From a candidate division Kazan bacterium RIFCSPHIGHO2_01_FULL_44_14 (GTDB lineage: Bacteria; Patescibacteriota; Kazan-3B-28), in the NCBI GenBank assembly GCA_001771185.1, contig METB01000001.1, forward strand, positions 186,631 to 250,630: 64,000 bases of DNA, read 5' to 3'. Shown here one piece after another: positions 2,939-57,762 of this stretch (the stretch's first letter is position 1; every line of letters starts with the position of its first letter). Position numbers and translations under genes: made by a program. A model generated the notes under the pieces. That model was given only the letters and a program-made list of their open reading frames with translations, was not told where the DNA came from and made no database searches.

Positions 2939-4954
2939 TTAATTTATTTGTATAATCTCGACCCCAAACTTCAAGTCAGTTTGCAATTTATCGCTAAATA
3001 ATTGTTTAGTTTTGACCATGTCGTTCTCGGCTAACCCCAGCGCCGGAGATAATTTCAAAATACTAGTTAAAGTCGTATTGTTGGCGCCTGGTTGTTTAAA
3101 AACATTTAATTGGTAATAATCAGTCACTTTTCCAGGCAATCTGTAATTTAATTCCACTGTTTTACTCTCTCCAGGATTGGTAGTTAACCAAAACGCCAAC
3201 ACGGTTTTACCGTTCTCGTCGTATTGTTCTACAGTAGTTTCATAATCCTGTCCGACAACTGAAACTTTCACCGTGTCTTTGGGCAAGTAAACCCGAACAT
3301 AATCTTTGTTAGGTCCGTCCGGAAAAATATAACTACCAGTATGAGTGTATTTAAGCTGTAGGGCAACATTCACATCACCAGTCAAATTAACATTGGCAGT
3401 ATGATGGATTTCTTCCTGAACATTTTGACTGCTTTTGCGTCCGCCCAGGTTAGCCCGAACTACTCCTAAAAAGTCCCCTCCCGATGTTGTTTCCGGCAAA
3501 ACCCCAGCCACGCTAAGTCGGTTCATTACTGGTTCAAGTTTAGGATTACGCAAATAAATCAACACATCTTTTTGCTGTAGCCGAGACATTAGGGCTAGGT
3601 TAATCTGTTTTAAGACCGCTCCATTGGCAGTCAGTAGTCGCCCTAATAAAATTGGCGCAAATTCGTTTAATACTTCTTTGGGATTTTCCTTTTGATTATC
3701 AATCAACTCAATTTGGGCTTGGGTTGCCGACACAAAATTGTCAGCAGTTAAGGTAAGCTCCTTGTTTTCTAAATAGACCGGACCCAGGACGGTTAAAATA
3801 TCTTTAATCACTTCGGGATTAATGGCGATAACCCCATCGGCCGTTCCCCCGCCGGCTTGCTCGTACAACTTTTGGAAAGTTTGAGCGGAAGTTGGGAAAT
3901 CGGCATACCAATTAGCATCCCGAGTGCCAAATGAAGTAGTAATCGCTTCTAAGGGTTTGGGTAAGGTCAGACTTGAATTAGGATTTTGCCCATCAATTCG
4001 TTGGGTCATATCAACCAAAACACTTTTTAATTTACCCTTATAAACTTCCACTAACATATAACTGCCCACAAAACCGCCGGTAGCCCGCAGTTCATTATTA
4101 TTTTGATTCAATATCAAATATTGGCGCGGATTATTGAAACCCAAGGCGTCTGGTAACTCTTTGGCTAAAGTTCCCAGGGTCATCACAGTGGACTGAAGAG
4201 TAGCAGTTTTAATTTGCGCTTCACTCAACGCTGTGGCATAAGTCGAGTCAACCGTTTTAGGATTAATCGACGACAACAAAGTATTGGCTTTGGTTACTTG
4301 GGCTAACGCTCGATCCAGGTTATTAGAACTTTGGCCCATCAAACCAACGATTTGTCCAGCCAAATCTTGCGCCTGGTTGCCGCTGGTGCTCAAACCATTA
4401 AAGTACTGCCACAGCGGTGTCATGGTATCAATTAGAGTGATTCCGGCTTGGGCTAAACTTAAACCACTATCAATTAATTTTTGCCCAGCGACAATTTGTG
4501 AACCGTCACTCGCCAGACCCGACATATATAAATTAGTTTGGCCTAAAGCCAAGAGTTCGGTTTGAGCAGTGGCAAACAGATTCTCCGCCGCCACAAAGTT
4601 GTCCCGAGCCCCAGAGATATCTTGGGCCAAAACCGCTGCCGCAGCGGCTTCTAACTTACCAATTCCCCGATTGGCCAAATCGGTAATTTGGCCTTTCACA
4701 TTATTGGCTGATTGATACACCAGTCCGCCACCGATATAAAGCAGCAGAGCCAGCATAACAATCAGGACTAATTTTAACCCAGCCCAAAGCCAAACCACGG
4801 CAGTTGATTGAACCGTTGCTTCGCTAAAAGCCATATTCAAAGTAGACGAAGGGTTAGTAAAACGAGATGAAACCGGGATAACGACAGAGTTACGAGTAAG
4901 CGGCCGACTTGATTTCGGTTTTACATAATAATACTTTTTAGTGTCTGTACTCAT
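2939..4954 (-). CDS. DUF4012-like membrane-anchored protein, a family associated with polysaccharide loci.
   Basis: N-terminal TM helix, then a long extracytoplasmic region with an ELRATGGFVGSY motif recalled from DUF4012. It heads a glycosyltransferase cluster. The family assignment is from memory. Confidence 0.45.
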   Translation of the reverse strand: MSTDTKKYYYVKPKSSRPLTRNSVVIPVSSRFTNPSSTLNMAFSEATVQSTAVVWLWAGLKLVLIVMLALLLYIGGGLVYQSANNVKGQITDLANRGIGKLEAAAAAVLAQDISGARDNFVAAENLFATAQTELLALGQTNLYMSGLASDGSQIVAGQKLIDSGLSLAQAGITLIDTMTPLWQYFNGLSTSGNQAQDLAGQIVGLMGQSSNNLDRALAQVTKANTLLSSINPKTVDSTYATALSEAQIKTATLQSTVMTLGTLAKELPDALGFNNPRQYLILNQNNNELRATGGFVGSYMLVEVYKGKLKSVLVDMTQRIDGQNPNSSLTLPKPLEAITTSFGTRDANWYADFPTSAQTFQKLYEQAGGGTADGVIAINPEVIKDILTVLGPVYLENKELTLTADNFVSATQAQIELIDNQKENPKEVLNEFAPILLGRLLTANGAVLKQINLALMSRLQQKDVLIYLRNPKLEPVMNRLSVAGVLPETTSGGDFLGVVRANLGGRKSSQNVQEEIHHTANVNLTGDVNVALQLKYTHTGSYIFPDGPNKDYVRVYLPKDTVKVSVVGQDYETTVEQYDENGKTVLAFWLTTNPGESKTVELNYRLPGKVTDYYQLNVFKQPGANNTTLTSILKLSPALGLAENDMVKTKQLFSDKLQTDLKFGVEIIQIN

Positions 4955-9845: not shown

Positions 9846-10154
9846 ATGTACTATGTGTACATCTTACAAAGTAGACAGGATGGCAAGTTGTATATTGGCT
9901 ATACAGCCGATTTGCGGTCGCGATTCAGAGAACACAACCAAGGTCTCTCGCAAGCTACTCGCCATCGTCAGCCATTTGATCTCGTCTACTATGAGGCCTT
10001 TAAGGCCAAGAAGGATGCCGTGGTTAGAGAACGGATGATTAAGCAATACAAGCAAGGTTATACCAATCTCAAAAAACGCATCTCAGCAAGCCTTGAACCT
10101 AGAAAGTGGGGGGAGGAAAGTCCGGACACCATTCTAAATCAGGAAAGTCGCTAA
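9846..10154 (+). CDS. Small GIY-YIG nuclease-domain protein (URI/YhbQ-like). Its C-terminal about 20 codons overlap the 5' part of RNase P RNA.
   Basis: MYYVYILQSRQDGKLYIGYTADLRSRFREHN. One of four paralogues in the window. Confidence 0.7.
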   Translation: MYYVYILQSRQDGKLYIGYTADLRSRFREHNQGLSQATRHRQPFDLVYYEAFKAKKDAVVRERMIKQYKQGYTNLKKRISASLEPRKWGEESPDTILNQESR

Positions 10155-10167
10155 CGGCGACCGTTGC

Positions 10168-10297
10168 CAGTGCTTCGCACTGGGAAATTTATCCAATCTC
10201 TCCAATCTGACCAATCTTACCAATCTAAGAAATTAAATTGGCGAAGGTTGGAATAAATTGGATTAAATTGGTTAGATTGACCAATGCGGAGCGTTGG
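10168..10297. repeat. Hairpin element copy 1 inside rnpB (CAGTGCTTCGCACTGG, an AT-rich imperfect palindrome, CCAATGCGGAGCGTTGG).
   Basis: Same architecture and partly identical sequence to 10331-10445 and to the 23S inserts at 42974-43105 and 43741-43893. Confidence 0.7.
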
Positions 10298-10330
10298 TGA
10301 TAGGGAAAGTGCCACAGAGACAATACTAAC

Positions 10331-10445
10331 CAGTGCTTCGCACTGGAATCATCAAATCTCAAAATCCAAATCCCAAACAGATTATTGTTTGATATTTGGT
10401 GCTTGGGACTTGGTATTTCCAACGCGGAGCGTTGGTGAAAGGTGA
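10331..10445. repeat. Hairpin element copy 2 inside rnpB.
   Basis: CAGTGCTTCGCACTGG, an AT-rich palindrome, CCAACGCGGAGCGTTGG; a tandem duplicate of copy 1 with a different interior. Confidence 0.7.
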
Positions 10446-10977
10446 AAAGCAACAGGGTGTTGAAGTGTTGAATGGCGGGTTAATCCCGCCAATCGGCTCC
10501 AAAGCTACCTGTCGGACTCCGTCGTGAGACGGATGTTCTGGCAAACCCTTTCCGGTGCAAGTTGGGCTGGACCGTGTCCGTCAATCGCTTTGGTTTAGAC
10601 GAGGCGGACAAGGACCCTAACGCTTGAGATTAATGGCAACATTAACCCCAGATAGATGACTACTTCACCCACCAAAGTTTTGCTTTCGCAAAATTTAGGC
10701 GGGCAAGACAGAATCCGGCTTACGGCTGGCAAAGAGCATACAAATCAACCACCCTCTGGGGGTGGTTTTTGGTCTAAGACAATTCAGTTTATACTATGGA
10801 TGACTTAATCTTGCTAAAATAACCAAGTTATGCCCCGTAGAGAAATTTAAAATACTCTTGGCCCCAATGTTTTCCTTTGGGCCAAACCATGGGGCAAATC
10901 TCGTCAGTAAATCGTTCTAATATCTGTTAGTGGGCCAATAGCAGAAAAGAAAATATTTCTAAATTCTTCTACGGGAT

Positions 10978-17070: not shown

Positions 17071-17478
17071 TTATTTCTTAAAAATAAGTAGTTTAGGAGC
17101 CAAAAAGTTCCATAAGAAAATGACTCCAATCGAAAGAATTTTGACAAGATTGACATCCCATCCAAATATTATACTTAGAATATAAATAAAGGTATTTGAA
17201 ATTCCCACTCCCACCGTGACCACGACCAAATAAAACGGTAATTGAGTTTTCCAATTTCCTTCCGTATCACCAAAAGTCCATAATTTATTCCAAACAAAAC
17301 CATTAGTTGCCGCAATCAAAAACGCCACAGTATTAGCAAGAATAATCTGCCAGTGGAAATACAAAAACAAATTCAACAAGCCGATATCAATAGCGGTATT
17401 TACGATACCAACTGTGGCAAATCTTAAAAATTGACGTAGTATGACGGAATTTAGAATTTGGAATTTGGAATTTAGCAT
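17071..17478 (-). CDS. GtrA-family membrane protein (polysaccharide-synthesis associated).
   Basis: FLRFATVGIVNTAIDIGLLNLFLYF...FVWNKLWTF. The 5' end lies in a (GAATTTR)n heptamer repeat, so the exact start is uncertain. Confidence 0.7.
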   Translation of the reverse strand: MLNSKFQILNSVILRQFLRFATVGIVNTAIDIGLLNLFLYFHWQIILANTVAFLIAATNGFVWNKLWTFGDTEGNWKTQLPFYLVVVTVGVGISNTFIYILSIIFGWDVNLVKILSIGVIFLWNFLAPKLLIFKK

Positions 17479-17491
17479 TAGAACTTTATTT

Positions 17492-17610
17492 TTGTCATCC
17501 CGAGCATTACCCTCTTGTCATCCCGAACATTACCTTCTTGTCATTCCGAGTGTTACCCTCTTGTCATCCCGAGTGTTACCCTCTTGTCATCCCGAGCGTA
17601 GTCGAGGGAT
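17492..17610. repeat. Tandem repeat of about 4.5 x 23 bp (TTGTCATCCCGAGCATTACCCTC).
   Basis: Units read directly at 17492, 17515, 17538, 17561 and 17584. The last unit merges into the inverted repeat that flanks the GIY-YIG gene. Confidence 0.85.
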
Positions 17611-31640: not shown

Positions 31641-34073
31641 GTGTGTAAAAATAAATTGATGCAATTTCTCAAACAGAATTTCTACCCTAGGCGTAAGAGT
31701 GGCAAACTGTTTTCGAAGTTGACCCACCGACAGAATATCTTGGCGCGAATTAGTTGGGCGCTGATTTTGGCAATCACTTTCACTAATATTCAATGGAATT
31801 TTAGTGATTTCGATATTCTGCCCGCGCCAACCCCAAAAGCCGAGGCCCAAGCCGCTGACCAGACCATTCTTTACTTTAAAAACGACACTGCCACTTCCAG
31901 CGCCTACTACGACATAACCGGCCCCAACAATGAAGAGAGTTCTTATACTGATGGGAACGCCGCCGACCCAACAGGCAAAACCACCGCTATAGCGATGCAC
32001 CCGATTTTTGGGGCGTTAATTCCTACCACTACCACTGACAATGTGAACCTCACCACCTCCCGCGCCAATATGAATGTCTGGTATCGTACCTTTATTATGC
32101 CGTTGGCAAATAATACGACATTTAATAGCACTACCACTTTTAACATCGGCGTCTCGGCTGATGAAAATAACGCCGCCGCCAACGCTGTCGTGGTGGGCTT
32201 TGTCTATGTCTATGATGGCGATGAGAATCCTTCGGCCAATGTCCAAACCCTGGCCGGCCCCACTGCCAGCTCGGAGGTCGGCACTGGTAACCAAGGGCTG
32301 GAGTGGGACATCGCCAATGGCCTTGGAGCCGGCTCCTACACCACCGACACGGACGACTATCTGGCAGTTGAACTGTGGGTGAACTTCCCCACTACCACCG
32401 CCCGCAATGTGACTCTCCGCTGGGGCGGAAATGTGGTGGTGGCAGCCGGCACTGGCAATATTGCCCCTGCTAGTCGAATTACCATCAATGGAACCAAGAT
32501 TGACACCTTTGACCCGCTATTTTTCAGGGAGACCAGCGCTGACCGACATCCCACCAATGAAACCACCACCGAGTTGACTCCAGAAGGAGGTACATTAGAC
32601 AGCCGCCGAATGGGGACGGTAGCCGGTAGTAGCGCCGAGACCAACGCCCAGGACACCACTGCTAGTGGCGAGTGGTTATTAAATGTGTTTACTTCACCAC
32701 CTCTGGCCGCCCAGACCATACCGGCCAGTAGCAACTTTATTATCAAGCTGGCGGGGAATGAAAGTAATGCCAGCGCTAACGCCCAATTTCGATATAGCAT
32801 TTACACTTGGGACGCCGACGACACGATTGGAGACACCATCGTGGGGTTTGCCAACAGCGGGGTTGAATGGCTCGCTGCTGATACTACCGACAACCAGGTT
32901 GAGATAGTGGTTAATAATGGGGCTGGGGCGATTACCATCTCGGATGGAGAACGGTTAGTGATAGAACTCAACACCACGGTTGTTAACTCTTATACCATTA
33001 CCCACTATTTTGGTGGCGCAAACACCCCAACCACTGCTGCTACCAACAGTGCCCTTATCCCCCCATTAAATTCCGATCGAAGGCCATTGCAGTATCTAGC
33101 CCAAGAATACGACCAAGCCAATTTTTGGTTTGATGAGGATGATGAAGATCACACCAGCAGTGATGTTCATAGTGCCTGGACCGATACAGCTGGATCAATT
33201 AACGAGAATCAATCGGGGACTTATACCGAAGATACTAATTTCCGGGTACGAATCCAAATCGTTAATCTGGGTGGCGAGACCGATACCCTGGCTCCAACTT
33301 TGTATTATTGCGATTTTTTCAGTTGCTCATATGCCCAGGTCACCGACAGTTCCACTGATGTACAAATAGCCCCCACTGCCAATATCGATCAAAATGATGT
33401 TACTACCAGACAGTTAACCGAACAAACTCCTGGCTGGGATTTTTCTGCCGGTCGGATGGTAGACACCTATGGAGTGGCTACCACGTCCGTATCGATGACT
33501 GCTTGGACCTACACCGAATATGAATGGTCGATTACAGCCATCAATCCAGGAATGTACAATCTTAAGGTCAGGGATGGGAGTACTGAACTTACCTATTACT
33601 CTTCAACCGCTTTTTTTACCGCCCAAGAGGGGTCTTCTCTCGGTGTGACTGCCCCGACTAATGTAACTCTGACCACTGGGAATCCCGGGACTACTTCCGA
33701 AACTACTTTTGGGGCTGGTGAACTGGTTGCGGTTACTTACGGCAGTGCTGGTTGGAGTTTGACGGTATCGTCTAGTGTCTTCACGGGATCTCCGACCTTG
33801 TATGTCATCCCGGCAGCTAATGTGAAACTCCGAACCGATGGAATACCACCAGCGGGTGGGAGTGATACTTACACGATCTGGTCAGGAGTTACTACTAATG
33901 TAAGTGAGCCGAGTGCCGGGACATACTCGCTCGATACCGCCAAAACCGTCGGGACCCGAAGTAGTGGCACTGGCGGAGATGTTACTAATGTTCGGCCAAC
34001 TATCCAAATCGTCATTCCGCCTGACGCAGTAGTAGAAGAATACACCGGCGATCTCACTTTCACAGTGGCCTAA
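31641..34073 (+). CDS. Large (810 aa) secreted Thr/Asn/Gly-rich surface protein with a WxL-like C-terminal end.
   Basis: N-terminal signal anchor; low-complexity beta-rich sequence; C-terminus ...IQIVIPPDAVVEEYTGDLTFTVA shares its ending with the two small WxL-like proteins. Confidence 0.55.
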   Translation: MCKNKLMQFLKQNFYPRRKSGKLFSKLTHRQNILARISWALILAITFTNIQWNFSDFDILPAPTPKAEAQAADQTILYFKNDTATSSAYYDITGPNNEESSYTDGNAADPTGKTTAIAMHPIFGALIPTTTTDNVNLTTSRANMNVWYRTFIMPLANNTTFNSTTTFNIGVSADENNAAANAVVVGFVYVYDGDENPSANVQTLAGPTASSEVGTGNQGLEWDIANGLGAGSYTTDTDDYLAVELWVNFPTTTARNVTLRWGGNVVVAAGTGNIAPASRITINGTKIDTFDPLFFRETSADRHPTNETTTELTPEGGTLDSRRMGTVAGSSAETNAQDTTASGEWLLNVFTSPPLAAQTIPASSNFIIKLAGNESNASANAQFRYSIYTWDADDTIGDTIVGFANSGVEWLAADTTDNQVEIVVNNGAGAITISDGERLVIELNTTVVNSYTITHYFGGANTPTTAATNSALIPPLNSDRRPLQYLAQEYDQANFWFDEDDEDHTSSDVHSAWTDTAGSINENQSGTYTEDTNFRVRIQIVNLGGETDTLAPTLYYCDFFSCSYAQVTDSSTDVQIAPTANIDQNDVTTRQLTEQTPGWDFSAGRMVDTYGVATTSVSMTAWTYTEYEWSITAINPGMYNLKVRDGSTELTYYSSTAFFTAQEGSSLGVTAPTNVTLTTGNPGTTSETTFGAGELVAVTYGSAGWSLTVSSSVFTGSPTLYVIPAANVKLRTDGIPPAGGSDTYTIWSGVTTNVSEPSAGTYSLDTAKTVGTRSSGTGGDVTNVRPTIQIVIPPDAVVEEYTGDLTFTVA

Positions 34074-34080
34074 CTCTACT

Positions 34081-34167
34081 AATCTCCGGCCAACCCTCCA
34101 GGCCCACATCCCCGCCAACCAGGTCTCAGGCAACCTCACGGGAACCTTCACCTTCACCGTCGTCTAG
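34081..34167 (+). pseudogene. Decayed duplicate of the last 28 codons of the 31641-34073 gene, placed 8 nt after its stop and in a different frame.
   Basis: Translates NLRPTLQAHIPANQVSGNLTGTFTFTVV* against the gene end NVRPTIQIVIPPDAVVEEYTGDLTFTVA*. Confidence 0.6.
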
Positions 34168-34182
34168 CCCCGCCCCATCCCC

Positions 34183-34217
34183 TGTATGACTTTATGCGGT
34201 CGCTTGAAGTCATACAT
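34183..34217. promoter_or_regulatory. Palindrome TGTATGACTT-N13-AAGTCATACA upstream of the PaaX-like regulator gene; candidate operator.
   Basis: Read directly. A near-identical, perfect copy lies at 34818-34853. Confidence 0.5.
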
Positions 34218-34239
34218 TTAATAGATATACAATAGAGCT

Positions 34240-34767
34240 GTGGTTAAGAAACGTTCAACGTTAACGAGGGATATTTTAGCTGCCGTAGCCGCTACGGGCA
34301 GTTTGATGGTGGTTGTTTTAACCGCTCCGAGCTTACCCCGCACACTGGGCCAATTACTTAATAAATATCAGCGCAATTCACTAGCGCCTTCTCGAATTAA
34401 ACAAAGATTGCGCGATCTCCAGCGTCAGCATTTGGTGGATATTAGCGAACAAGGCAACCGAACTAAAATTCGCCTCACCAAAGCCGGCCGAGTTCGAGTG
34501 CTTGAGTATGAGGCCGATGATATGGTCATTCCCAAACAGACCCCCTGGGACGGTCAATGGCGATATGTTATTTTTGATATCCCAGAAAAGAATAAATTGG
34601 CCCGCAATGTGTTCCGAGAAAAACTGCGGATGTTAGGATTTGTAAAGATTCAACAAAGCGTTTGGCGTCATAAATATCCCTGCAGTCCGGAAATTGAATT
34701 CCTCACTCATCTCTACCAAATTACTCGATATGTTAGTGTTCTGCAGGGACACTCTCTCGGGCAATAG
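34240..34767 (+). CDS. PaaX-family-like transcriptional regulator (N-terminal winged helix, C-terminal Cas2/PaaX_C-fold domain).
   Basis: C-terminal WDGQWRYVIFDIPEKNKLARNVFREKLRMLGFVKIQQSVW matches the PaaX_C / Cas2-like W-G-W...IPE...R...LR..L...GF pattern; the N-terminal 90 aa are basic with helix-turn-helix character. Confidence 0.5.
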   Translation: MVKKRSTLTRDILAAVAATGSLMVVVLTAPSLPRTLGQLLNKYQRNSLAPSRIKQRLRDLQRQHLVDISEQGNRTKIRLTKAGRVRVLEYEADDMVIPKQTPWDGQWRYVIFDIPEKNKLARNVFREKLRMLGFVKIQQSVWRHKYPCSPEIEFLTHLYQITRYVSVLQGHSLGQ

Positions 34768-34817
34768 TCACGCCCCCATCTCAATGATTTCAAATAGTCC
34801 AATCTTAATTTGACTAC

Positions 34818-34853
34818 CTGTATGACTTTAAGCGGCCGCATAAAGTCATACAG
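34818..34853. promoter_or_regulatory. Perfect palindrome CTGTATGACTTTA-AGCGGCCGCA-TAAAGTCATACAG between the regulator gene and capA; candidate operator.
   Basis: 13-bp perfect inverted arms with a 10-bp palindromic spacer, read directly. Confidence 0.55.
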
Positions 34854-34888
34854 TTTGGTGGGGATGTGGGTGTGATACAATCTAAGAC

Positions 34889-35974
34889 GTGAAACAAGTT
34901 AGTTGGCGTGTTTTTATATTGGCGGGGATGGCGCTGGTGGGCGCCGGAGTTTGGTATGCGGTCAATCCAGTGACTGAAGATTTCACTGACAAACAACCAA
35001 CCCAAAACATCGATTCTGAAATTGTGATTATTGTTGGCGGAGACGTGAATATGGGACGGCAGACCGGCCAAAAGATTTTGGCCGGTGAAATTGATTATCC
35101 GTTTCTTAATATCGCCGAAGTGCTGAAATCGGCTGACATCGCTTTTGTAAATCTGGAAAGTCAGCTGGCTGACCTGAATGGCGAGACCCAGTCCCCCACT
35201 AATGAATATCGGTTTGCCGGACCACCCGAAGGAGCCCAGAGTTTGGCCAATGCCGGAATTGATATTGTATCGGTAGCTAATAATCATATGTGGGATTATG
35301 GCAAAGCCCGACTAGAAGAAACTTTGACTAATTTAAACAATGCTGGGGTGATTTATGTTGGTGCAAATATGGACCCGACCCAAGTTTGGACCCCAAAAAT
35401 TATCGAAGTCAAAGGCAAAAAAGTCGCTTTCCTAGCGATGACTAATCTGCTTAACGGCTACGAAAACTCTGGCGCCAATGAGTTTGTCGCCTTCCAAAAT
35501 GGATCTCGGCTAGTAGCAGAAATTCAGAAGATTAAAGATGAAGTTGACTGGGTAATTATATCCCTGCACAGCGGAGCCGAGTACACTGCCAATCCCAGTT
35601 CGGCCATGGTCCAGATGTCCCACGACTTAATCGACGCTGGAGCCGATGCAATTTTAGCCGGACACCCGCATGTTCCGCAGAGAATAGAAGAATACACTGC
35701 AGGTTCAAGTAGCCCATCCTTCACTAAAGTTTCGGAGGGCGAGGGAATAAAAAATCAGAGTAAGGGTATTATTTTTTATTCCCTCGGAAACTTTGCGTTC
35801 TGGCAACCGTTTGATTTTTGGACCCAACATTCATTTCTGGCCAAACTAAAATTAACCATCCCGCATCAAGTCGAGTATGAGATAGTCCCTGTAAATTCGG
35901 GCTGGCAGCCCTCGGTGCTAACCGATACGGATGCCATTCAGCAGTTAATGACCCGACTGAATCCAGAATCGTAG
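34889..35974 (+). CDS. CapA/PgsA-family metallophosphatase (poly-gamma-glutamate capsule synthesis family).
   Basis: Signal anchor; VIIVGGDVNMGRQ...FVNLES...ANNHMWDYG...ISLHSGAEY...LAGHPHVPQ (PGA_cap pattern). Confidence 0.7.
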   Translation: MKQVSWRVFILAGMALVGAGVWYAVNPVTEDFTDKQPTQNIDSEIVIIVGGDVNMGRQTGQKILAGEIDYPFLNIAEVLKSADIAFVNLESQLADLNGETQSPTNEYRFAGPPEGAQSLANAGIDIVSVANNHMWDYGKARLEETLTNLNNAGVIYVGANMDPTQVWTPKIIEVKGKKVAFLAMTNLLNGYENSGANEFVAFQNGSRLVAEIQKIKDEVDWVIISLHSGAEYTANPSSAMVQMSHDLIDAGADAILAGHPHVPQRIEEYTAGSSSPSFTKVSEGEGIKNQSKGIIFYSLGNFAFWQPFDFWTQHSFLAKLKLTIPHQVEYEIVPVNSGWQPSVLTDTDAIQQLMTRLNPES

Positions 35975-39592: not shown

Positions 39593-40183
39593 AATTTCTT
39601 TTATCTGTCATCCCCAACTTGATTGGGGATCCAGACAGAGACACAAACACTTTTCTGTTATTTTCTGGATTCCCTCCGCCAGTTGGCGGATTCGCGGGAA
39701 TGACAAAAAGTATAACTGGATGACGGACAAAATGGATTGAGCGCAGAGTACCCGCGACGGATTCTGCCGTTCGGCAGAACTTTCAGCCCACCTTGTCCTG
39801 CTGGACAGCAGGACGGTCCAACCCCGAAGGGGCCCTGGAATCTTTGGCGCATAATCCCCGCGACGACCTACTTTTGCAGGACCTTGCGGTCCAACTATCA
39901 TCGGCGCTGAGGAGCTTAACTGCTCTGTTCGAGATGGGAAGAGGTGTGACCTCCTCGCTATCATCACGGAGATTATAAGCCAAAGAATCTTACTAGGGTG
40001 CTGTTCGAGATGGGAATTCTGCTGTACAGCAGAATCCGGTATCATCACGAGCCTGCCCGCCAAAGTGATATCTATATTTAAAGTGGCTAATGACCTATTT
40101 TGAATGAGATTGAACGACGGCGGGAACTCTAAACTCAATGGGATAGATCCTGAAACAAGTTCAGGATGACATTTGTAAAAGTA

Positions 40184-40915: not shown

Positions 40916-41659
40916 CATGATAATCCATTATTACTAATGGCATAGACTATATCTTCATCCTTTCCGCCCACCGGCGGAGGAGGAGGTGGCGTGTGATTCT
41001 GCGCTACGGCAAAATCTCATCAGTTGTTCTTGCTTTGAACAATTGAATCAGTCGTTACGGGGAACAAGATGATGTGTTTGCAGAAATTGTTTGACCGTTG
41101 CTTGCGTGGTCGTGCGTTTCTTTGAGTAATTATACTTTGCGGTTTCATCCACTAGAGTCGCTCTAGCAAGCAACTCTTGGGGAGTGATTCTCTGGTATGA
41201 AGAACCAATGCCCTTAACGCATAAATCAATAACCTTCTGCGCTAGGACTTGTTTCAGTTGCAGATATGGCAACAATTTGGTTAAAACTTCGTAGACCGGC
41301 TGATACCCAACAATCGTGTATTCAGCCATCTGATCATTACGAACACGAACATATCCATGTTTCAGGTGGCCCTTAAGCCATTCGAGAAAGTGTTTTCTGT
41401 CTTCTTTTTGATAAAAGACAATGCTGACTCGAATCTGATAGCCGTGGACATATCCACTCCGTTTCACCAGTTGCGCCATAATGCAACCATCTCCATCCAA
41501 AAATCCTGCAATGTAAGCAAGTAATGTTTCTGCCATTATCTTGATCTTCCCTCGGGGTTACCCTTTTTCCGTTCGGTAGGAAAGTAGGGTTTCTCCGATA
41601 CAGCCACATTTATTGTACCGCATTTCTGCGGTAGAACGCAATGTGATTTACGTTCTGAA
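40916..41659 (-). mobile_element. Group I-type intron (744 nt) in 23S domain V, inserted between ...GGGTTCAGAACGT and CGTGAGACAGTTCGG (the E. coli ~2586-2593 region), encoding a LAGLIDADG homing endonuclease.
   Basis: Flanking exon sequences align to E. coli ...UAGAACGU|CGUGAGACAGUUCGG; the 5' exon ends in U, the insert ends in G, and it contains the 41048-41536 ORF. Confidence 0.75.
41048..41536 (-). CDS. LAGLIDADG homing endonuclease (single-motif, I-CreI-like size).
   Basis: MAETLLAYIAGFLDGDGCI... motif; 162 aa; located wholly inside the 23S intron. Confidence 0.85.
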   Translation of the reverse strand: MAETLLAYIAGFLDGDGCIMAQLVKRSGYVHGYQIRVSIVFYQKEDRKHFLEWLKGHLKHGYVRVRNDQMAEYTIVGYQPVYEVLTKLLPYLQLKQVLAQKVIDLCVKGIGSSYQRITPQELLARATLVDETAKYNYSKKRTTTQATVKQFLQTHHLVPRND

Positions 41660-41672
41660 CCCAGCTCGCGTG

Positions 41673-41704
<32 letters not shown>

Positions 41705-41718
41705 AACCTGCTCCAGCT

Positions 41719-41749
<31 letters not shown>

Positions 41750-41781
41750 AAACCGCTTCGTCGATATGGACTCTTGGAAGC

Positions 41782-41813
<32 letters not shown>

Positions 41814-42291
41814 TCGTTGAGCTTCGGCGCACCCATGTGCAACCGTCGGATCACTATATCCTGCTTTCGCATCTGCTTGACTTGTAGGTCTCGCAGTTAA
41901 GCTCCCATATACTATTGCGCTATCGTCCCGATTTCCATCCGGGACTAGGGAACCTTTGAACGCCTCCGTTACTTTTTAGGAGGCAACCGCCCCAGTTAAA
42001 CTACCCACCAAACGCTGTCCTCCTGCCAGATAATGGCTAGGAGTTAGAATTAAAAATGCATCAGGGTGGTATTTCACCGTTGACTCGCTGATGGCTAGCG
42101 CCACCAGGTCATTGTCTCCCACCTATCCTACACAAATAAATCTCTAACCCAACGCCAGGTTGTAGTAAAGCTCCACGGGGTCTTTTTGTCTTGCTGCGGA
42201 TAGCCGGCATCTTCACCGGCAATGTAGTTTCGCCGAGTCCCTCTTTGAGACAGTCATCAGACCGTTACGCTATTCGTGCGGGTCGGAACTT

Positions 42292-42578
42292 CATGTTAAC
42301 TCTATTTTTCAATAGAGATCAGACTATACCTTCATCTTGTCGCAAACCGTAGGAGATCGTTTTCGCGATATCCATAGTTTGTTTGCTAGACAAGAGCTGA
42401 CGTGTTGTTCCGCTTTACAGCAGAACCTCGCCTTTCGGCTCAGTCGTTACGGGTCACCTTAATTATAAGGTGTTCCCTCGGTATTAGCATATCCCCATAG
42501 CATAAGGATTTAGCTTTCACCGATATGAGTCAGTTTGCTTTGTAGTGTTACCACTACATTCGGGCAAGTTTCCCACCT
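42292..42578 (-). mobile_element. ORF-less intron-like insertion (287 nt) in 23S at the position equivalent to E. coli ~1931 (GUCGGGU | AAGUUCCGACC).
   Basis: Exon sequence is continuous with E. coli after removing the insert; the insert ends ...GTTAACATG (3' G) and follows an exon U. Confidence 0.6.
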
Positions 42579-42598
42579 ACCCGACAAGGAATTTCGCT

Positions 42599-42787
42599 CT
42601 TAGATTCCTTACACTAAGGACCATGTCTTCACCCCGATTAGTCGGGGGCGTGGTGTATGGCCTCTTGTAGCCACGTATGGACTTTCTTTATGTTGCCATA
42701 AAGTAAGGTAGCATTTTGCGAGTTATCGTATCGCTTATAACAGTCCCAGTCCTTCTCGATTTAACAATTTTAATTGTTCAACCGAGA
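42599..42787 (-). mobile_element. Short intron-like insertion (189 nt) in 23S at the position equivalent to E. coli ~1917 (GGUCCUAAGGU | AGCGAAAUUCC), 20 nt upstream of the previous one.
   Basis: The exon 20-mer AGCGAAATTCCTTGTCGGGT separates the two inserts. The insert contains an exon-mimic GGTCCTTAGTGTAAGGAATCTAAG near its 3' end. It is short for a group I intron, so its class is uncertain. Confidence 0.5.
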
Positions 42788-42823
<36 letters not shown>

Positions 42824-42973
42824 AGGGCTTAGTGTCAGAGCTTCGCCTTGCGGCTAACCCCTCTACGTGACCTTCTGGCACCGGGCAAGCGTCAGTCCCT
42901 ATACTTCCTCTTTCGAGTTAGCAGAGACCTGTGTTTTTGCTAAACAGTCGCCTGATGTCTTTAGCTGCGGCCC

Positions 42974-43105
42974 ACCTCACGCTCCGCGTGAGGAAATCTA
43001 ACCAATTTATTCCAATTTATTCCAACCTTCGCCAATTTATTTTCATAGATTGGTAAGATTGGTGAGATTGTTTAGATTGACTAAATTTACTCGTGCGAAG
43101 CACGA
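42974..43105. repeat. Hairpin intervening-sequence element in 23S helix 63, same family as the rnpB inserts.
   Basis: On the rRNA strand: CGTGCTTCGCACG, then an AT-rich segment (CCAATCTTACCAATCTA..TAAATTGGCGAAGGTTGGAATAAATTGGA) about 90% identical to 10200-10290, then CCTCACGCGGAGCGTGAGG. Replaces the E. coli helix-63 variable region. Confidence 0.75.
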
Positions 43106-43740
43106 TGTGGGCAGTCCTTATTCCGAAGTTACGGACGCTATTTTGCCGAGTTCCTTAAAGAGGGTTCTCTCGTGCGCCTGAGGCTACTCGCCCTATCCAC
43201 CTGTGTCGGTTTAGGTACGGATGCTTAATATTCTCGTTAGAGGTTTTTCTGGTCAAATTAGATCAGCCAAGTCGTATTGTCCCGAAGAACTCAACTTCCA
43301 TTCGTAGCTCACGGTTGCTCAATAAATTGAACAGTCCCCCGGATTTGCCAAAGGGACCCCATTAACTACTTAGACCAAGAAACCTATCTTGGCTCGGCCT
43401 ACCAACTTGCGTCGCCCCATCACTAGACGTGCAGACCGGTAAAGTCAGCATCCAGCCTACCTTTCGGCAGGTTGATCATCTGATCTACCAATTTGCTTGT
43501 CTTGGGCGAATATCAAGCAGTACAGGAATATTAACCTGTTGTCCATCGCCTACGCCTTGCGGCCTCGGCTTAGGACCGACTAACCCTGGGACGAAAACCG
43601 TTACCCAGGAAACCTCGGATAAATCGGCGTCAAGGTTTTTCACCTTGATCTCGCTACTCGTGCCAACATTCTCACTTCTGCGCGCTCCACCCAACCTCAC
43701 AGTTAAGCTTCACTGCTGCGCAGAACGCTCCCCTACCACA

Positions 43741-43893
43741 CCACTGCTACGCAGTGGAAGCACTAAATCCTAATTACTAAATTCTAAACAAGCCCCAAAT
43801 CCTAATGTCCCAAAAAATGTTTGGAAAATTGAATCATTGGAATTTGTTTAGAGTTTATGATTTCGAATTTCGTATTTCCATTGCGGAGCAATG
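43741..43893. repeat. Hairpin intervening-sequence element in 23S helix 45.
   Basis: CCACTGCTACGCAGTGG, an AT-rich palindrome, CCATTGCGGAGCAATGG. Inserted between ...GATACCGAAGATGCGGATG and TGTGGTAGGGGAGCGTTCTG (E. coli ~1164-1185). Confidence 0.75.
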
Positions 43894-43979
43894 GCATCCG
43901 CATCTTCGGTATCTAGCTTAGCCCCGTTACATTTTCGGCGCAGACACACATCGACCAGTGAGCTATTACGCTATCTTTA

Positions 43980-44010
<31 letters not shown>

Positions 44011-44518
44011 TTGTTAATGTGTCTCCACTTCCTTTCACACTTAGCTAGATTTAGGGACCTTAGATGGCGGTTTGGGCTGTTTCCCTTTCGACATACGACG
44101 CTTAGCCGCCGTTTTCTGACTCCCATGCTTTAACCAGACAGTATTCGGAGTTTAATTGGATGCGGTACGGTAAACCGCCCGAATCCATTCAGTAGCTCTA
44201 CCACTGCTGGGAACGCTATGAGGCTATACCTAAATATATTTCGGGGAGAACCAGCTATCTCCGGGTTCGATTGGAATTTCTCCGCTAACCACAGCTCATC
44301 ACCCCACTTTTCAACGTAGGTGTGTGCGGCCCTCCACTGCTTCTTAGGGCAGCTTCAGCCTGGCCATAGTTAGGTCACCCGGTTTCGGGTCTAATCCCTG
44401 CTACTTCAGTCGCGCTATTCGCACTTGCTTTCGCTTCGGATACGGATTAAAAATCCTTATCCTTGCAACAGAAATTAACTCGTTGGCTCATTCTACAAAA
44501 GGCACGCCGTCACCCCAT

Positions 44519-44676
44519 CAGCACACAATGCTGGATGAAATAACCAAATTCCAAATCACAAATCACAAACAAACTCCAAATTTAAATTTCTAAACAAAAA
44601 AAACAGAAAAATTATTATCTGGTGCTCATTTGATGATTGATTATTGGCGTTTGGTTACTCCAGCACTCTGTGCTGG
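44519..44676. repeat. Hairpin intervening-sequence element in 23S helix 25.
   Basis: AGCACAGAGTGCT, an AT-rich low-complexity palindrome, AGCATTGTGTGCT. Inserted just 5' of GGCGTGCCTTTTGTA (E. coli ~530-545). Confidence 0.7.
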
Positions 44677-44739
44677 CGGGGCTCCGACTTTTAATCGGGC
44701 ATTCGGTTTCAGGTACTATTTCACTCCCCTCACAGGGGG

Positions 44740-44779
<40 letters not shown>

Positions 44780-46062
44780 GAGAAATGATATTTAGCCTTA
44801 CCAGATGGTCCTGGCACATTCCGGCAGGATTTCACGGGTCCCACCGTACTTAAGAAATAATGTTCAGAGTGATTTTCTTTTCGCTTACGGGACTTTCACC
44901 CACTATGGTTGCCCTTTCCAGAGACCTTCAGCTAAGAAAATCATTGTTAACTCCTAATTTGGTCTACCGCCCAAAAATACATCACCCTTATAACCCTCTC
45001 CTACACAACGCCAGTAGGCTTTAACATGTAAGAAAGTTTAGACTCTTCCCTTTTCGCTCGCCACTACTTAGGGAATAACATTTGTTCTATTTTCCTCGTG
45101 CTAATAAGATGTTTCAGTTCACACGGTTCCCTCCTCATTGTCTATGTATTCAACAATGGGTTCCCGCCAATTCAAAGCTTGTATATCGCTACTACCCATT
45201 CGACTAATCAACTAATTATTTATCGATTGGAATGTTTGATACACCAGCCCTAAATTGGCGGGAGGATTGCTCCATTCGGACATCCCCGGATCACAGGTTG
45301 TTTGACACCTACCCGAGGCTTATCGCAGTCTACTACGTCCTTCTTCGGTCATTTCTCCCAAGGCATCCACCGCATGCCCTTGAGTAACTTACGCTCGTTT
45401 CTCCAAGAGACGAGTGCCTTGCACTTTAAATCGACGATTCAAGAAAGCGATTTTGCTTTCTTTATCTTTCTTTTCTTTCAGTGCATGTTGTCAACGAACT
45501 AAAAAATTCAAAGAATAACTGGAAGGGGCTAAAAAAATGATAATCCCTCGGCGCTGCTCGGGGTAAATTTTACTGCGTAAAAATTAAAAAGCAGGGCGTT
45601 CATCCCTGCTTGAAGTCAACAGTTAACGGATGAACTTAGATTTGAAGCGAATTTTGTAAATATAAAATAGCCAAGTCGTCTAGGCCAGAAGTTAAATTGG
45701 ATATTAGTTTCCTCAAAAGCTTATAAATAGTGTTATATGTGGTCTCACCAAAGTGGCAGAAGCACTAGTTGCAACGATACTATATATACCAGTTGCCCGC
45801 AAGAGATATTTTGCCATTCTGACCTGGAATAGTCAACCCCGTAGAGAATTTTGGACAGGCGCCTCTTGCCGGGTGCCTCCTGATACCAATCATCCAAAAT
45901 CTTCTACAGGGTCAAGGGGGGCCTGTCAATGGGTTATAATCAGGTTATAACTCCTATTCGTCCCGCCTGCCCCGTGCGAATGAAATGAGTCCTTCGGGGT
46001 TAGAAATCACCTACCGGGATAATCGAGGAACGGATAGAAGTAATTCATAAATATACGCTAGG

Positions 46063-57100: not shown

Positions 57101-57762
57101 CCATTGACGAAATGTCCCATTAACACATGGGCTTGATTATAAAAATCTGTTGCTCCACTGCTACTCGGTGGCGCAAAGTTCCCACCCTTCCAAGCAAGGT
57201 CTAACGCAAGTTGATCGCTTCCAAATTCTTGTTGAGGAATTGGTTTCTGCCAGTCAGTGGGCCCGGCGGCGCTGTTAATTATAGATCCAGACTTCATCCG
57301 CCATACTTTTACTGTATGACTATAAACCTTAGCCCCGGCGTCATATACCTCCAATGTGAGAGTAGTAAATCCCTGATTCAAGAAATCAACATTGGTCAAT
57401 AGTTTAGTTAAATCCCAAACAAAAGTATATTTACCCTTTTGGTTAACCCCAGATGTATAGATTGAGATTAACACCCCAGAAGGATTTTTGACCAAGAATT
57501 CTATCCCAGAGCTAGTTGTATTGGTCAACACTTCGTACTCCCCCTGATAGGTGCTATTAGCCAAAAGCAAATCCCCACTAGTCGGATAATTGATTCTGAT
57601 ACTTTGTGGAATGCTCTGTGCCTCTACCTTTTGACTGACACCCTGATAGACCATCCAACCAGTGAACGACATCGCCAAGACCAAGACCAACGCCCAATGA
57701 ATATAGGCGGTGTTTGATTTTGGTTGATGATTCTCTAATTGTTTAGTTAGACGTTCGAGCAT
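54127..57762 (-). CDS. Giant (1211 aa) extracellular beta-rich protein, N-terminally anchored, with a C-terminal dockerin-like motif.
   Basis: Continuous ORF; signal anchor (WALVLVLAMSFTGWMVY); C-terminal DFNNDTEINALD. Confidence 0.6.
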   Translation of the reverse strand: MLERLTKQLENHQPKSNTAYIHWALVLVLAMSFTGWMVYQGVSQKVEAQSIPQSIRINYPTSGDLLLANSTYQGEYEVLTNTTSSGIEFLVKNPSGVLISIYTSGVNQKGKYTFVWDLTKLLTNVDFLNQGFTTLTLEVYDAGAKVYSHTVKVWRMKSGSIINSAAGPTDWQKPIPQQEFGSDQLALDLAWKGGNFAPPSSSGATDFYNQAHVLMGHFVNGSPDLFKIDEWMAGGHFGSYLATTYGVVSFLWSHIGSQFWSYTGGSGPTLGMQIISYAADGEYPEGRGTPVAGAIDRISMPLSSFVTWSAPVGTAGPVYPGAKYILKWAVNVKANPPSGLKADVTAYYNYDSVSKTWKSQVVAPDIDPVSITSKEWTIPTDVKLGSTIKFLITTKLSTLQGSVEYSKTNSGDLKVNSTTAPIELTSPTKIGTGPDNGVIKPKLVTLSDGKEYRSFTLKWSMADNVPANLDLVAHVKYALADDSETMDVGSVNLSDGSYDWRNPLEATSEKDTAFWIGKAANLVFYSRDNSFVYTSYPVVFGGRLTVTQPQPNEVMVGQPYTIKWTYPPAYTSQQPEFHQNTRYLQIHYGEVVKGTDGQEKVDNWTEIVQLEPSTTGPTDSYTWSGDKTSVLTAGKKYRFSFTWVYKLSVGTANAKSSFPAVDFTVASSDGPFINFTTPTARTVAVVGKILPIHIQITPNGWDMSKFDIMFIQYAITGGTPKNIEGINPDDRLEYDFSWTVPTELANEKIHLIATLGGGTTPRDSDPFSVISAGHTGDGTNPSDYQMRFASAIKPLFGVGETNSRLTDITGGAAAESNFSQTATIKYWLSLYMVDGSGQDKLIYAFPLQRSDTGALSILDADRASQFGAGVLNSATKIQLVVAFEITDSILDTELPSVTSVTINYSTDFVNAPFEITITPNTKTIDTGASADYTITVIPVDSPTFTGSVTLAIANPSWAEGQVAITFDSVTTNVPGGATLKLTSTTPGTYTFIVSATAGEFVARSTVTTLIVGSVTPPDGTVPQVNIAFTAPVQRGEIKNPDLRFTLALYEGLQSVYQDSTLVTDATDHGSMTIPSVQSNLELGKSYNAYIKTPQHLSQKASKVNGVTGSSFIVTQTINNAPLAVGLEFPELPAGDIAYGATTGDNAYDSWDTIDSTDWGQFISEMVETFLTKLSDFNNDTEINALDTPWFYSNWWSDGAMHTDGISNPQPQ

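Follow-up and report, generated by a model that had tools for sequence, protein, structure and literature searches.

A PaaX- and Cas2-related gene bracketed by two palindromes in a Kazan bacterium: a candidate self-repressing module

PaaX is the phenylacetyl-CoA-responsive repressor of the paa operons of Escherichia coli and Pseudomonas (PDB 8A39; TIGR02277). To our knowledge, the regulators of bacteria of the candidate phyla radiation (CPR) are almost unstudied. We describe here a gene encoding a protein of 175 amino acids (aa), designated mini-PaaX, which is bracketed by two 36-bp palindromes in a stretch of 64 kb from the candidate division Kazan bacterium RIFCSPHIGHO2_01_FULL_44_14 (contig METB01000001.1, positions 186,631 to 250,630). 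This whole stretch, hereafter the window, is the part of the genome that was examined, together with about 6 kb of each homologous locus. In the reading that we favour and consider rather probable, mini-PaaX is a dimeric two-domain autorepressor with two cognate 36-bp operators on either side of its own gene, the downstream one being also a 3' RNA hairpin.

According to a review (PMC9493321), PaaX is built from a winged helix-turn-helix, a motif for dimerisation and a C-terminal domain, and acts as a repressor of its own promoter. Similar to PaaX, mini-PaaX possesses a predicted N-terminal winged helix, a central Cas2-like PaaX_M domain and the WDGKW motif, and it is proposed to repress its own promoter likewise. 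The reported E. coli PaaX operator, of about 39 bp, has widely spaced inverted half-sites, TGATTC-N27-GAATCA (PMC9493321), and the sites of the window have the geometry TATGAC-N18-GTCATA within 36 bp, so that the two arrangements appear compatible. In contrast to PaaX, which has 316 aa, mini-PaaX lacks the C-terminal ligand domain PaaX_C and no paa genes lie nearby. It also keeps the Cas2-type segments FDIPE and Q-SVW, where E. coli PaaX has LLSEGLD and APSLM, and its sites have a conserved palindromic centre and bracket the gene on both sides.

Autoregulated repressors, such as GalR with OE/OI looping and the controller C-proteins with their C-boxes, share with this locus a helix-turn-helix protein, predicted here to be a dimer, and a palindrome over its own promoter. 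Extra operator copies nearby (two tandem upstream sites, 112-116 bp apart, in homologous loci L010 and L024) and paralogues with distinct arms are further similarities. Unlike in these systems, the second candidate operator of this monocistronic gene is situated past the stop codon and is itself transcribed, and no conserved regulated cargo gene is present. REP-RAYT units (REPtrons) and dif/lox modules resemble the locus in that a small gene stands between two palindrome copies that co-vary with the encoded protein. However, mini-PaaX has no HUH/Y1 or tyrosine-recombinase domain, in contrast to REP-RAYT, IS200/IS605 and dif/lox systems, and, unlike in REP-RAYT, the palindromes are not dispersed in the sequence sampled and the locus is syntenic among relatives.

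The protein and its two palindromes

The gene and the two palindromes are located as follows.

34240-34767, plus strand: gene of the two-domain protein of 175 aa, with a GTG start, encoding a predicted winged helix, a linker helix and a Cas2-like domain.
34182-34217, no strand: upstream palindrome of 36 bp, an imperfect copy with centre GCGGTCGC and candidate primary operator over the -35 region.
34818-34853, no strand: downstream palindrome of 36 bp, beginning 51 nt past the stop codon, candidate second operator and 3' RNA hairpin.

The Pfam search of the protein identified PaaX_M (PF20803) at residues 101-173 with 71.6 bits (cut-off 24, E 5.9e-20), a domain carried by all 28 homologues checked. 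PaaX_C, the helical C-terminal domain that binds the inducer phenylacetyl-CoA, is absent by Pfam, and residue 175, immediately behind the Cas2-like domain, is the last of the protein. An AlphaFold2 (AF2) model was built from 24 homologues and reached a predicted local distance difference test score (pLDDT) of 83. In this model the N-terminus forms a three-helix winged helix (helices 2-18, 34-42 and 50-62, wing 66-79), which is followed by a linker helix (81-93) and a C-terminal ferredoxin-fold domain (106-171). The latter has the order beta-alpha-beta-beta-alpha-beta (strand 106-112, helix 116-131, strands 135-138 and 141-144, helix 149-158, strand 165-171) and bears the motif WDGxWR-VIFDIPE...R..FR..L..GF..IQ.SVW. 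No Pfam PaaX match was obtained for the N-terminal winged helix at E <= 0.1, and its PaaX type is tentatively suggested by the helix-helix-helix-wing topology, by the Foldseek alignment and by an hhalign alignment that starts at residue 51. In the Foldseek search against the PDB, the best match was E. coli PaaX 8a39 (E 5.2e-4, 171 columns), followed by PaaX-like Rv0674 and 3l09, and many Cas2 structures matched the C-terminal domain with probabilities of 0.99-1.0. With hhalign, residues 51-170 align to residues 55-171 of E. coli K-12 PaaX (probability 86%), with the WDGKW motif in common. The NCBIfam model of PaaX, TIGR02277, aligns residues 37-168 to PaaX positions 21-149 with 35.2 bits, below its equivalog cut-off of 264.55, and the neighbours are a surface-protein-like open reading frame (ORF), capA and comM.

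Cas2 is dimeric and, within Cas1-Cas2 complexes, extends along duplex DNA. Mini-PaaX has in common with CRISPR Cas2 the ferredoxin-like domain, an Asp at the end of beta1, an Arg in alpha1 and Q-SV(F/W). It differs in being fused to a predicted winged helix and in scoring below the curated Cas2 cut-offs (Pfam PF09827, 16.6 against 23.8; TIGR01573, 21.1 against 24.5), and the Cas2 models of PADLOC gave weak matches only, with E values from 2e-5 to 1e-2 over about 35 residues. Neither a CRISPR-like array nor array-like direct repeats were found in the window, and cas1 was absent from the ten mid-sized ORFs scanned, which carry housekeeping domains and are a part of the ORFs of the window. Mini-PaaX is the only family member in the window. 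The search with Pfam detected no HUH/Y1 or tyrosine-recombinase domain in it. An origin in phages or defence systems was considered and rejected, as no relatives were found in IMG/VR, no PHROG matched, and the PADLOC matches were limited to weak Cas2 ones.

Some of these points had been raised in an earlier note on this DNA. It described a winged-helix-like N-terminus and a C-terminal PaaX_C or Cas2-like domain, and this fold assignment holds in substance, whereas the second domain is the central PaaX_M and not PaaX_C. The profile comparison that it proposed does reach E. coli PaaX, with the Cas2 models remaining below cut-off, and its view that the protein is not a CRISPR Cas2 agrees with those scores and with the lack of a CRISPR-like array in the window. 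The same note reported a palindrome pair around ORF 34240-34767, with perfect 13-bp arms in the downstream member. The pair is real, and the 13-bp arms were confirmed at 34818-34830 and 34841-34853.

The downstream palindrome, CTGTATGACTTTAAGCGG followed by CCGCATAAAGTCATACAG, has 17 complementary pairs out of 18, the sole mismatch being A:A at 34831/34840 beside the centre GCGGCCGC (34832-34839). The upstream palindrome, CTGTATGACTTTATGCGG followed by TCGCTTGAAGTCATACAT, possesses perfect 10-bp arms at 34183-34192 and 34207-34216 and is 88% complementary over arms of 16 nt. Both copies stand in register, with 87% identity over 39 nt and a spacing of 636 bp. Within the 64 kb, the 10-mer half-site TGTATGACTT has exactly four occurrences, all of them inside these two palindromes. 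Similarly, GTATGACTT-N14-AAGTCATAC with up to three mismatches allowed has two matches in the 64 kb, and 0.00 are expected. Further copies, whose absence the earlier note had counted against its own proposal, were not found elsewhere in the window, which is the extent that could be searched.

A third site of the form TATGAC-N19-GTCATA was considered at 57315-57345 and rejected. It lies inside an ORF of 1211 aa on the minus strand, has a spacing that is wrong by one and lacks the GCGRYCGC centre, and it is probably a chance occurrence (chance figure about 0.06). Outside both palindromes there is a 16-nt inverted repeat at 34103-34118 and 34855-34870 (CCCACATCCCCGCCAA and TTGGTGGGGATGTGGG, 94% complementary), which also pairs as 34107-34118 with 34919-34930. 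Its left arm is C-rich, and its right arm is G-rich and abuts the downstream palindrome. Element ends were rejected as an explanation of this repeat, since nothing similar is present in five related loci. The segment 34077-34170, the roughly 95 nt that follow the stop codon of the upstream ORF of 810 aa, repeats the last coding segment of that ORF (33975-34073) and resembles a C-terminal repeat unit that was duplicated and has decayed.

A large family with flanking palindromes

Homologues of mini-PaaX are proteins of Patescibacteria/CPR bacteria, uniformly of about 170-240 aa. The hidden Markov model search of 1.84 billion representatives retrieved 3,989 clusters (50% identity) at E <= 1e-10. 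In a degenerate-pattern scan of species-representative genomes, at least 600 stretches matched and at least 593 of them code for a relative; one assembly frequently has several paralogues. Among the matches listed, the closest complete genome belongs to a Kazan-group bacterium, with 60% identity. No paper describing the mini-PaaX family or its palindromes was found in the literature searched, and the family is very large and apparently undescribed. One member, P0023, is named 'CRISPR-associated endonuclease Cas2' by its source, and naming of this type is likely a systematic mis-annotation.

The layout palindrome-gene-palindrome was present again, with different sequences, in the first three homologous loci inspected. 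One of them, L003, has the perfect 40-bp palindrome TAGCGCACCAGGCTACGCTA followed by TAGCGTAGCCTGGTGCGCTA both before and after the gene. The survey was extended to about 80 homologous Patescibacteria loci, with 81 upstream and 77 downstream flanks and 1575 control windows from those loci. A best 16-pair palindrome with at least 13 of 16 pairs was found in 41% of the upstream and 43% of the downstream flanks, against 1.3% of the control windows. By strict criteria, 518 kb contained 52 family-type sites, of which 51 are no more than 260 nt away from a family gene; shuffled sequences gave none. The lone exception is a third copy downstream in L027, identical to the second. The three cognate palindromes of L027 are centred at 2807, 3589 and 4194, and the third brackets an unannotated ORF of 136 aa (3728-4138), which results in a cassette-like layout of repeat-gene-repeat-gene-repeat. 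An apparent third copy in L002, at 6637, was rejected as it is not palindromic.

The arms belong to the individual locus. The median identity of upstream and downstream arms is 0.83 inside one locus; between loci the mean is 0.32. Arms differ among paralogues of one assembly and are similar among closely related proteins. The relative orientation of the two copies is inconsistent, with 20 direct, 16 flipped and 18 ties. In L005 (Kazan bacterium CP011216.1), the palindromes at 2942-2979 and 3529-3568 have the common centre AAACGGCCGTTT and quite different arms, the downstream ones resembling those of the L002 orthologue; this divergence may indicate that another paralogue takes part in cross-regulation, or that specificity turns over rapidly. 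A metagenome-wide scan with TGTATGACNNNNNGCGGNCGC returned at least 120 single-strand chance matches, the pattern being too degenerate, and none of those listed is palindromic or adjoins a homologue. An independent assembly, L205, is 99.995% identical to the window and has the identical arrangement. The short contigs L204 and L206, which carry the same gene, were considered as assembly breaks at invertible or mobile ends and rejected, because their ends are not informatively coincident with the palindromes.

When 131 sites were stacked on their centres, three zones were distinguished.

Distance 1-4 from the centre: complementary fraction 0.82-0.98, conserved family-wide, with C at -3 in 91%.
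Distance 5-8 from the centre: complementary fraction 0.59-0.69, A/T-rich and weakly conserved.
Distance 9-16 from the centre: complementary fraction 0.79-0.90, with almost no conservation across loci.

The commonest centres of the 131 sites are GCGATCGC (22), GCTATAGC and ACGATCGT (11 each), GCGGTCGC (8) and GCGGCCGC (7). Self-complementary central 4-mers were found in 89 of the 131 sites (68%), which two-fold duplex recognition predicts and a hairpin loop does not.

Promoters, neighbours and competing explanations

Two promoter-like elements are relevant for the interpretation of the palindromes.

34204-34233, plus strand: promoter-like TTGAAG-18-TACAAT, a consensus match only, with the predicted start near the GTG start codon.
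34873-34881, plus strand: possible extended -10 element TGaTACAAT, read by eye, 7 nt before the GTG of capA (34889).

The -35 hexamer of TTGAAG-18-TACAAT is located inside the right arm of the upstream palindrome. Across the family, the -10-like hexamers show a peak 25-28 nt past the upstream centre, formed by 13 of 48 loci where the mean is 3.7; no comparable peak was seen at the downstream copies. The -10 of the window at +28 fits this peak, as does that of L005, where TATACT stands at +26 from the upstream centre and the ATG follows 10 nt further. With this phasing the -35 falls inside the upstream palindrome, over operator positions 4-10, and the least palindromic segment of the sites broadly coincides with these positions, slightly more in the upstream copies. 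The suggestion of the earlier note that the protein is an autoregulated repressor is thus plausible, given the -35 in the right arm and the family peak of -10 elements. A TACAAT hexamer ends 7 nt before the GTG in both the regulator gene (34228-34240) and capA (34873-34889), and no obvious Shine-Dalgarno sequence precedes either gene, which suggests that both messenger RNAs (mRNAs) are leaderless.

Our model starts from what was observed, namely the fold, the two sites, the layout found throughout the family, arms that co-vary with the locus and the phasing of the promoter. It predicts that the protein dimerises, binds directly and represses, and it predicts a role for the downstream copy. In PaaX, the Cas2-like domain serves for dimerisation. 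A homodimer of mini-PaaX would bind the 36-bp palindrome as duplex DNA. The outer arms, which are particular to each locus and lie 9-17 bp from the centre (TGTATGAC in the window), would be recognised by its two winged helices, and a conserved part of the dimer would lie over the family-wide centre GCGRYCGC. Binding at the upstream site, which overlaps the -35 of the gene's own promoter, would repress transcription and provide negative autoregulation. The downstream site would be a second cognate operator that closes the module through cooperative binding, looping or a roadblock. Since it is transcribed, the downstream site would also form a strong 3' hairpin on the mRNA.

Several observations weigh against this autorepressor model. 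The promoter scan found one site, against 1.4 expected in shuffles, which is no better than chance. Helical phasing of the upstream-downstream distances, with a best period of 10.2 bp, was not significant (single-test p 0.023, 31 periods). Without a ligand-binding domain there is no evident relief of repression, and targets limited to the gene's own flanks, in the sequence covered here, offer no obvious benefit to the cell. The Cas2-type residues that are invariant in the family (FDIPE, with D113 within it, R122, R126, Q138 and S140) may imply more than a dimerisation scaffold. Finally, compensated double changes between upstream and downstream copies are in excess, both overall (60, against about 9.5 expected) and in loci whose copies are at least 70% identical (15, against 3), the striking loci being L005, L006 and L020. 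A pure duplex-operator model does not predict this excess, and it suggests that a hairpin or cruciform was selected for or served as a template for mutation. The compensated changes fit selection for pairing, at least in the transcribed downstream copy. Quasi-palindromes tend to be corrected by templated mutation, and such correction would fit the changes as well.

The compensated changes are also part of the case for regarding the palindromes mainly as nucleic-acid hairpins, of RNA or extruded DNA, instead of duplex operators. Their roles could then be those of 5' and 3' mRNA stabilisers, of a terminator or insulator pair without U-tract, or of substrates for the Cas2-like domain, which has an RNase/DNase fold, in post-transcriptional self-control. 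As RNA, both copies are predicted to form strong folds, at -17.5 and -22.8 kcal/mol (z about -5), the latter value being that of the downstream copy with z -4.7, and the downstream copy stands 3' of the stop codon whichever gene is the neighbour. In the sense strand of the downstream copies, the G.U-compatible G.T mismatches exceed A.C mismatches by 55 to 26 (p 0.0017; expected ratio from composition 1.08), and the Cas2 signature residues are invariant in the family. However, the upstream copies show no such bias (47:42), and the -10 phasing places them before the likely transcription start. A hairpin loop does not need the self-complementary central 4-mers, and positions 5-8 show a complementarity of no more than 59-69%. 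No terminator-like site is present in 34050-34950 and no T-tract follows the downstream palindrome; family-wide, TTTT occurs within 12 nt of only 12% of the downstream sites. No Rfam family matched at E <= 1. The precedent of PaaX is one of duplex binding (PMC9493321). We therefore regard hairpins as the main function of both copies as unlikely.

The autorepressor model also has to be compared with the proposal of the earlier note that the downstream copy controls capA (PGA_cap) and comM/yifB, so that the protein would regulate this operon in addition to itself. The TGaTACAAT element begins 20 nt past the downstream palindrome, and, if it is real, a protein on the palindrome could reach its -35 region. 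In addition, a weak bump of -10-like hexamers was detected across the family 37-40 nt past the downstream centre (7 of 50, against a mean of 2.6), capA is likewise the downstream gene in the Kazan relative L005, and PGA_cap lies one gene further in L002. However, the promoter scan called nothing at TGaTACAAT, and the element is not conserved in L005, where the downstream site is about 150 nt from the capA start and has arms unlike those of the upstream site. In L002, another gene intervenes between the downstream site and PGA_cap. Of 72 loci, 29 have a convergent gene downstream. The downstream palindrome is found before 62% of the convergent and 65% of the co-directional neighbours. All-against-all clustering detected no conserved neighbour across the family, and the 128 neighbours have a diverse housekeeping Pfam content (aminoacyl-tRNA synthetases, penicillin-binding proteins, ribosomal protein L21, DprA, deformylase and others), so that a conserved partner gene was rejected. 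Given this independence from the orientation of the neighbour and the lack of any conserved neighbour, the downstream copy is part of the regulator module and not of capA-comM. A dedicated capA-comM operator is accordingly not supported, and we consider it distinctly unlikely. The locus is probably a self-repressing gene module, whose downstream palindrome may incidentally touch the capA promoter in this genome.

A selfish or mobile cassette would explain the constant association of gene and palindromes in another way. In this case, the palindromes would serve for recombination or cleavage, in the manner of lox/dif-like sites, REP-RAYT units or hairpin-ended elements, and the protein would be a site-specific factor or nuclease acting at the conserved centre. 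In accordance with this, the monocistronic gene is always accompanied by its own pair of sites in unrelated contexts, the several paralogues of a genome differ in their arms, the geometry of arms on either side of an 8-bp centre resembles that of recombinase core sites, the acidic Cas2-type residues are invariant, and the third identical site of L027 brackets its extra ORF like a second cassette. On the other hand, the window, L002 and L005 are syntenic at 60-66% protein identity. They share the upstream neighbour, which indicates that the module is old and syntenic in the Kazan lineage. The unchanged arrangement in L205, the inconsistent orientation of the two copies, the lack of dispersed palindrome copies in the window and the sampled loci, and the lack of relatives in IMG/VR and of a PHROG match also speak against mobility. 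Integrases, transposases and Cas1 are not among the frequent families of the 128 neighbours. Moreover, we know of no nuclease or recombinase activity of PaaX_M domains. A mobile cassette is for these reasons highly improbable. The same holds for its more specific form, a self-contained element whose Cas2-type domain, guided by the winged helix to the flanking palindromes of about 36 bp, would nick, cleave, recombine or bind an extruded hairpin at the GCGRYCGC centre, to which we give very little weight. If it were true, such a self-acting Cas2-type element would be a selfish cassette or an addiction module. It would moreover represent the first relative of Cas2 that itself recognises repeat-sized palindromes, with a bearing on the origin of repeat recognition by CRISPR adaptation proteins.

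Other features of the window and meaning of the family

The window encodes further features that are unrelated to mini-PaaX. The 23S ribosomal RNA (rRNA) gene (41576-45394, minus strand) spans 3819 nt, compared with a model of 2925 nt, and contains a group I intron. A LAGLIDADG ORF is located just past the 3' end of the 23S rRNA, with the 5S gene next to it (listed spans 42300-42588, 41048-41536 and 39855-39971). Interrupted rRNA genes are typical of CPR bacteria. The class A RNase P RNA (10083-10733, plus strand) matches the whole model of 367 positions and spans 651 nt, and therefore has a large insertion. At 17466-17603 there is a tandem array of five to six copies of the 23-nt unit TTGTCATCCCGAGCATTACCCTC and its variants, which has no spacers and is not a CRISPR array.

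The autorepressor reading of mini-PaaX raises the question of why a small genome keeps several regulators whose visible targets are their own flanks. For genome annotation, counts of orphan cas2 genes in Patescibacteria may be inflated by the mini-PaaX family. Each member apparently has its own cognate site twice beside its gene, so that the family would provide a natural table of proteins and sites for the recognition code of winged helices, and offers candidate orthogonal repressor-operator parts.

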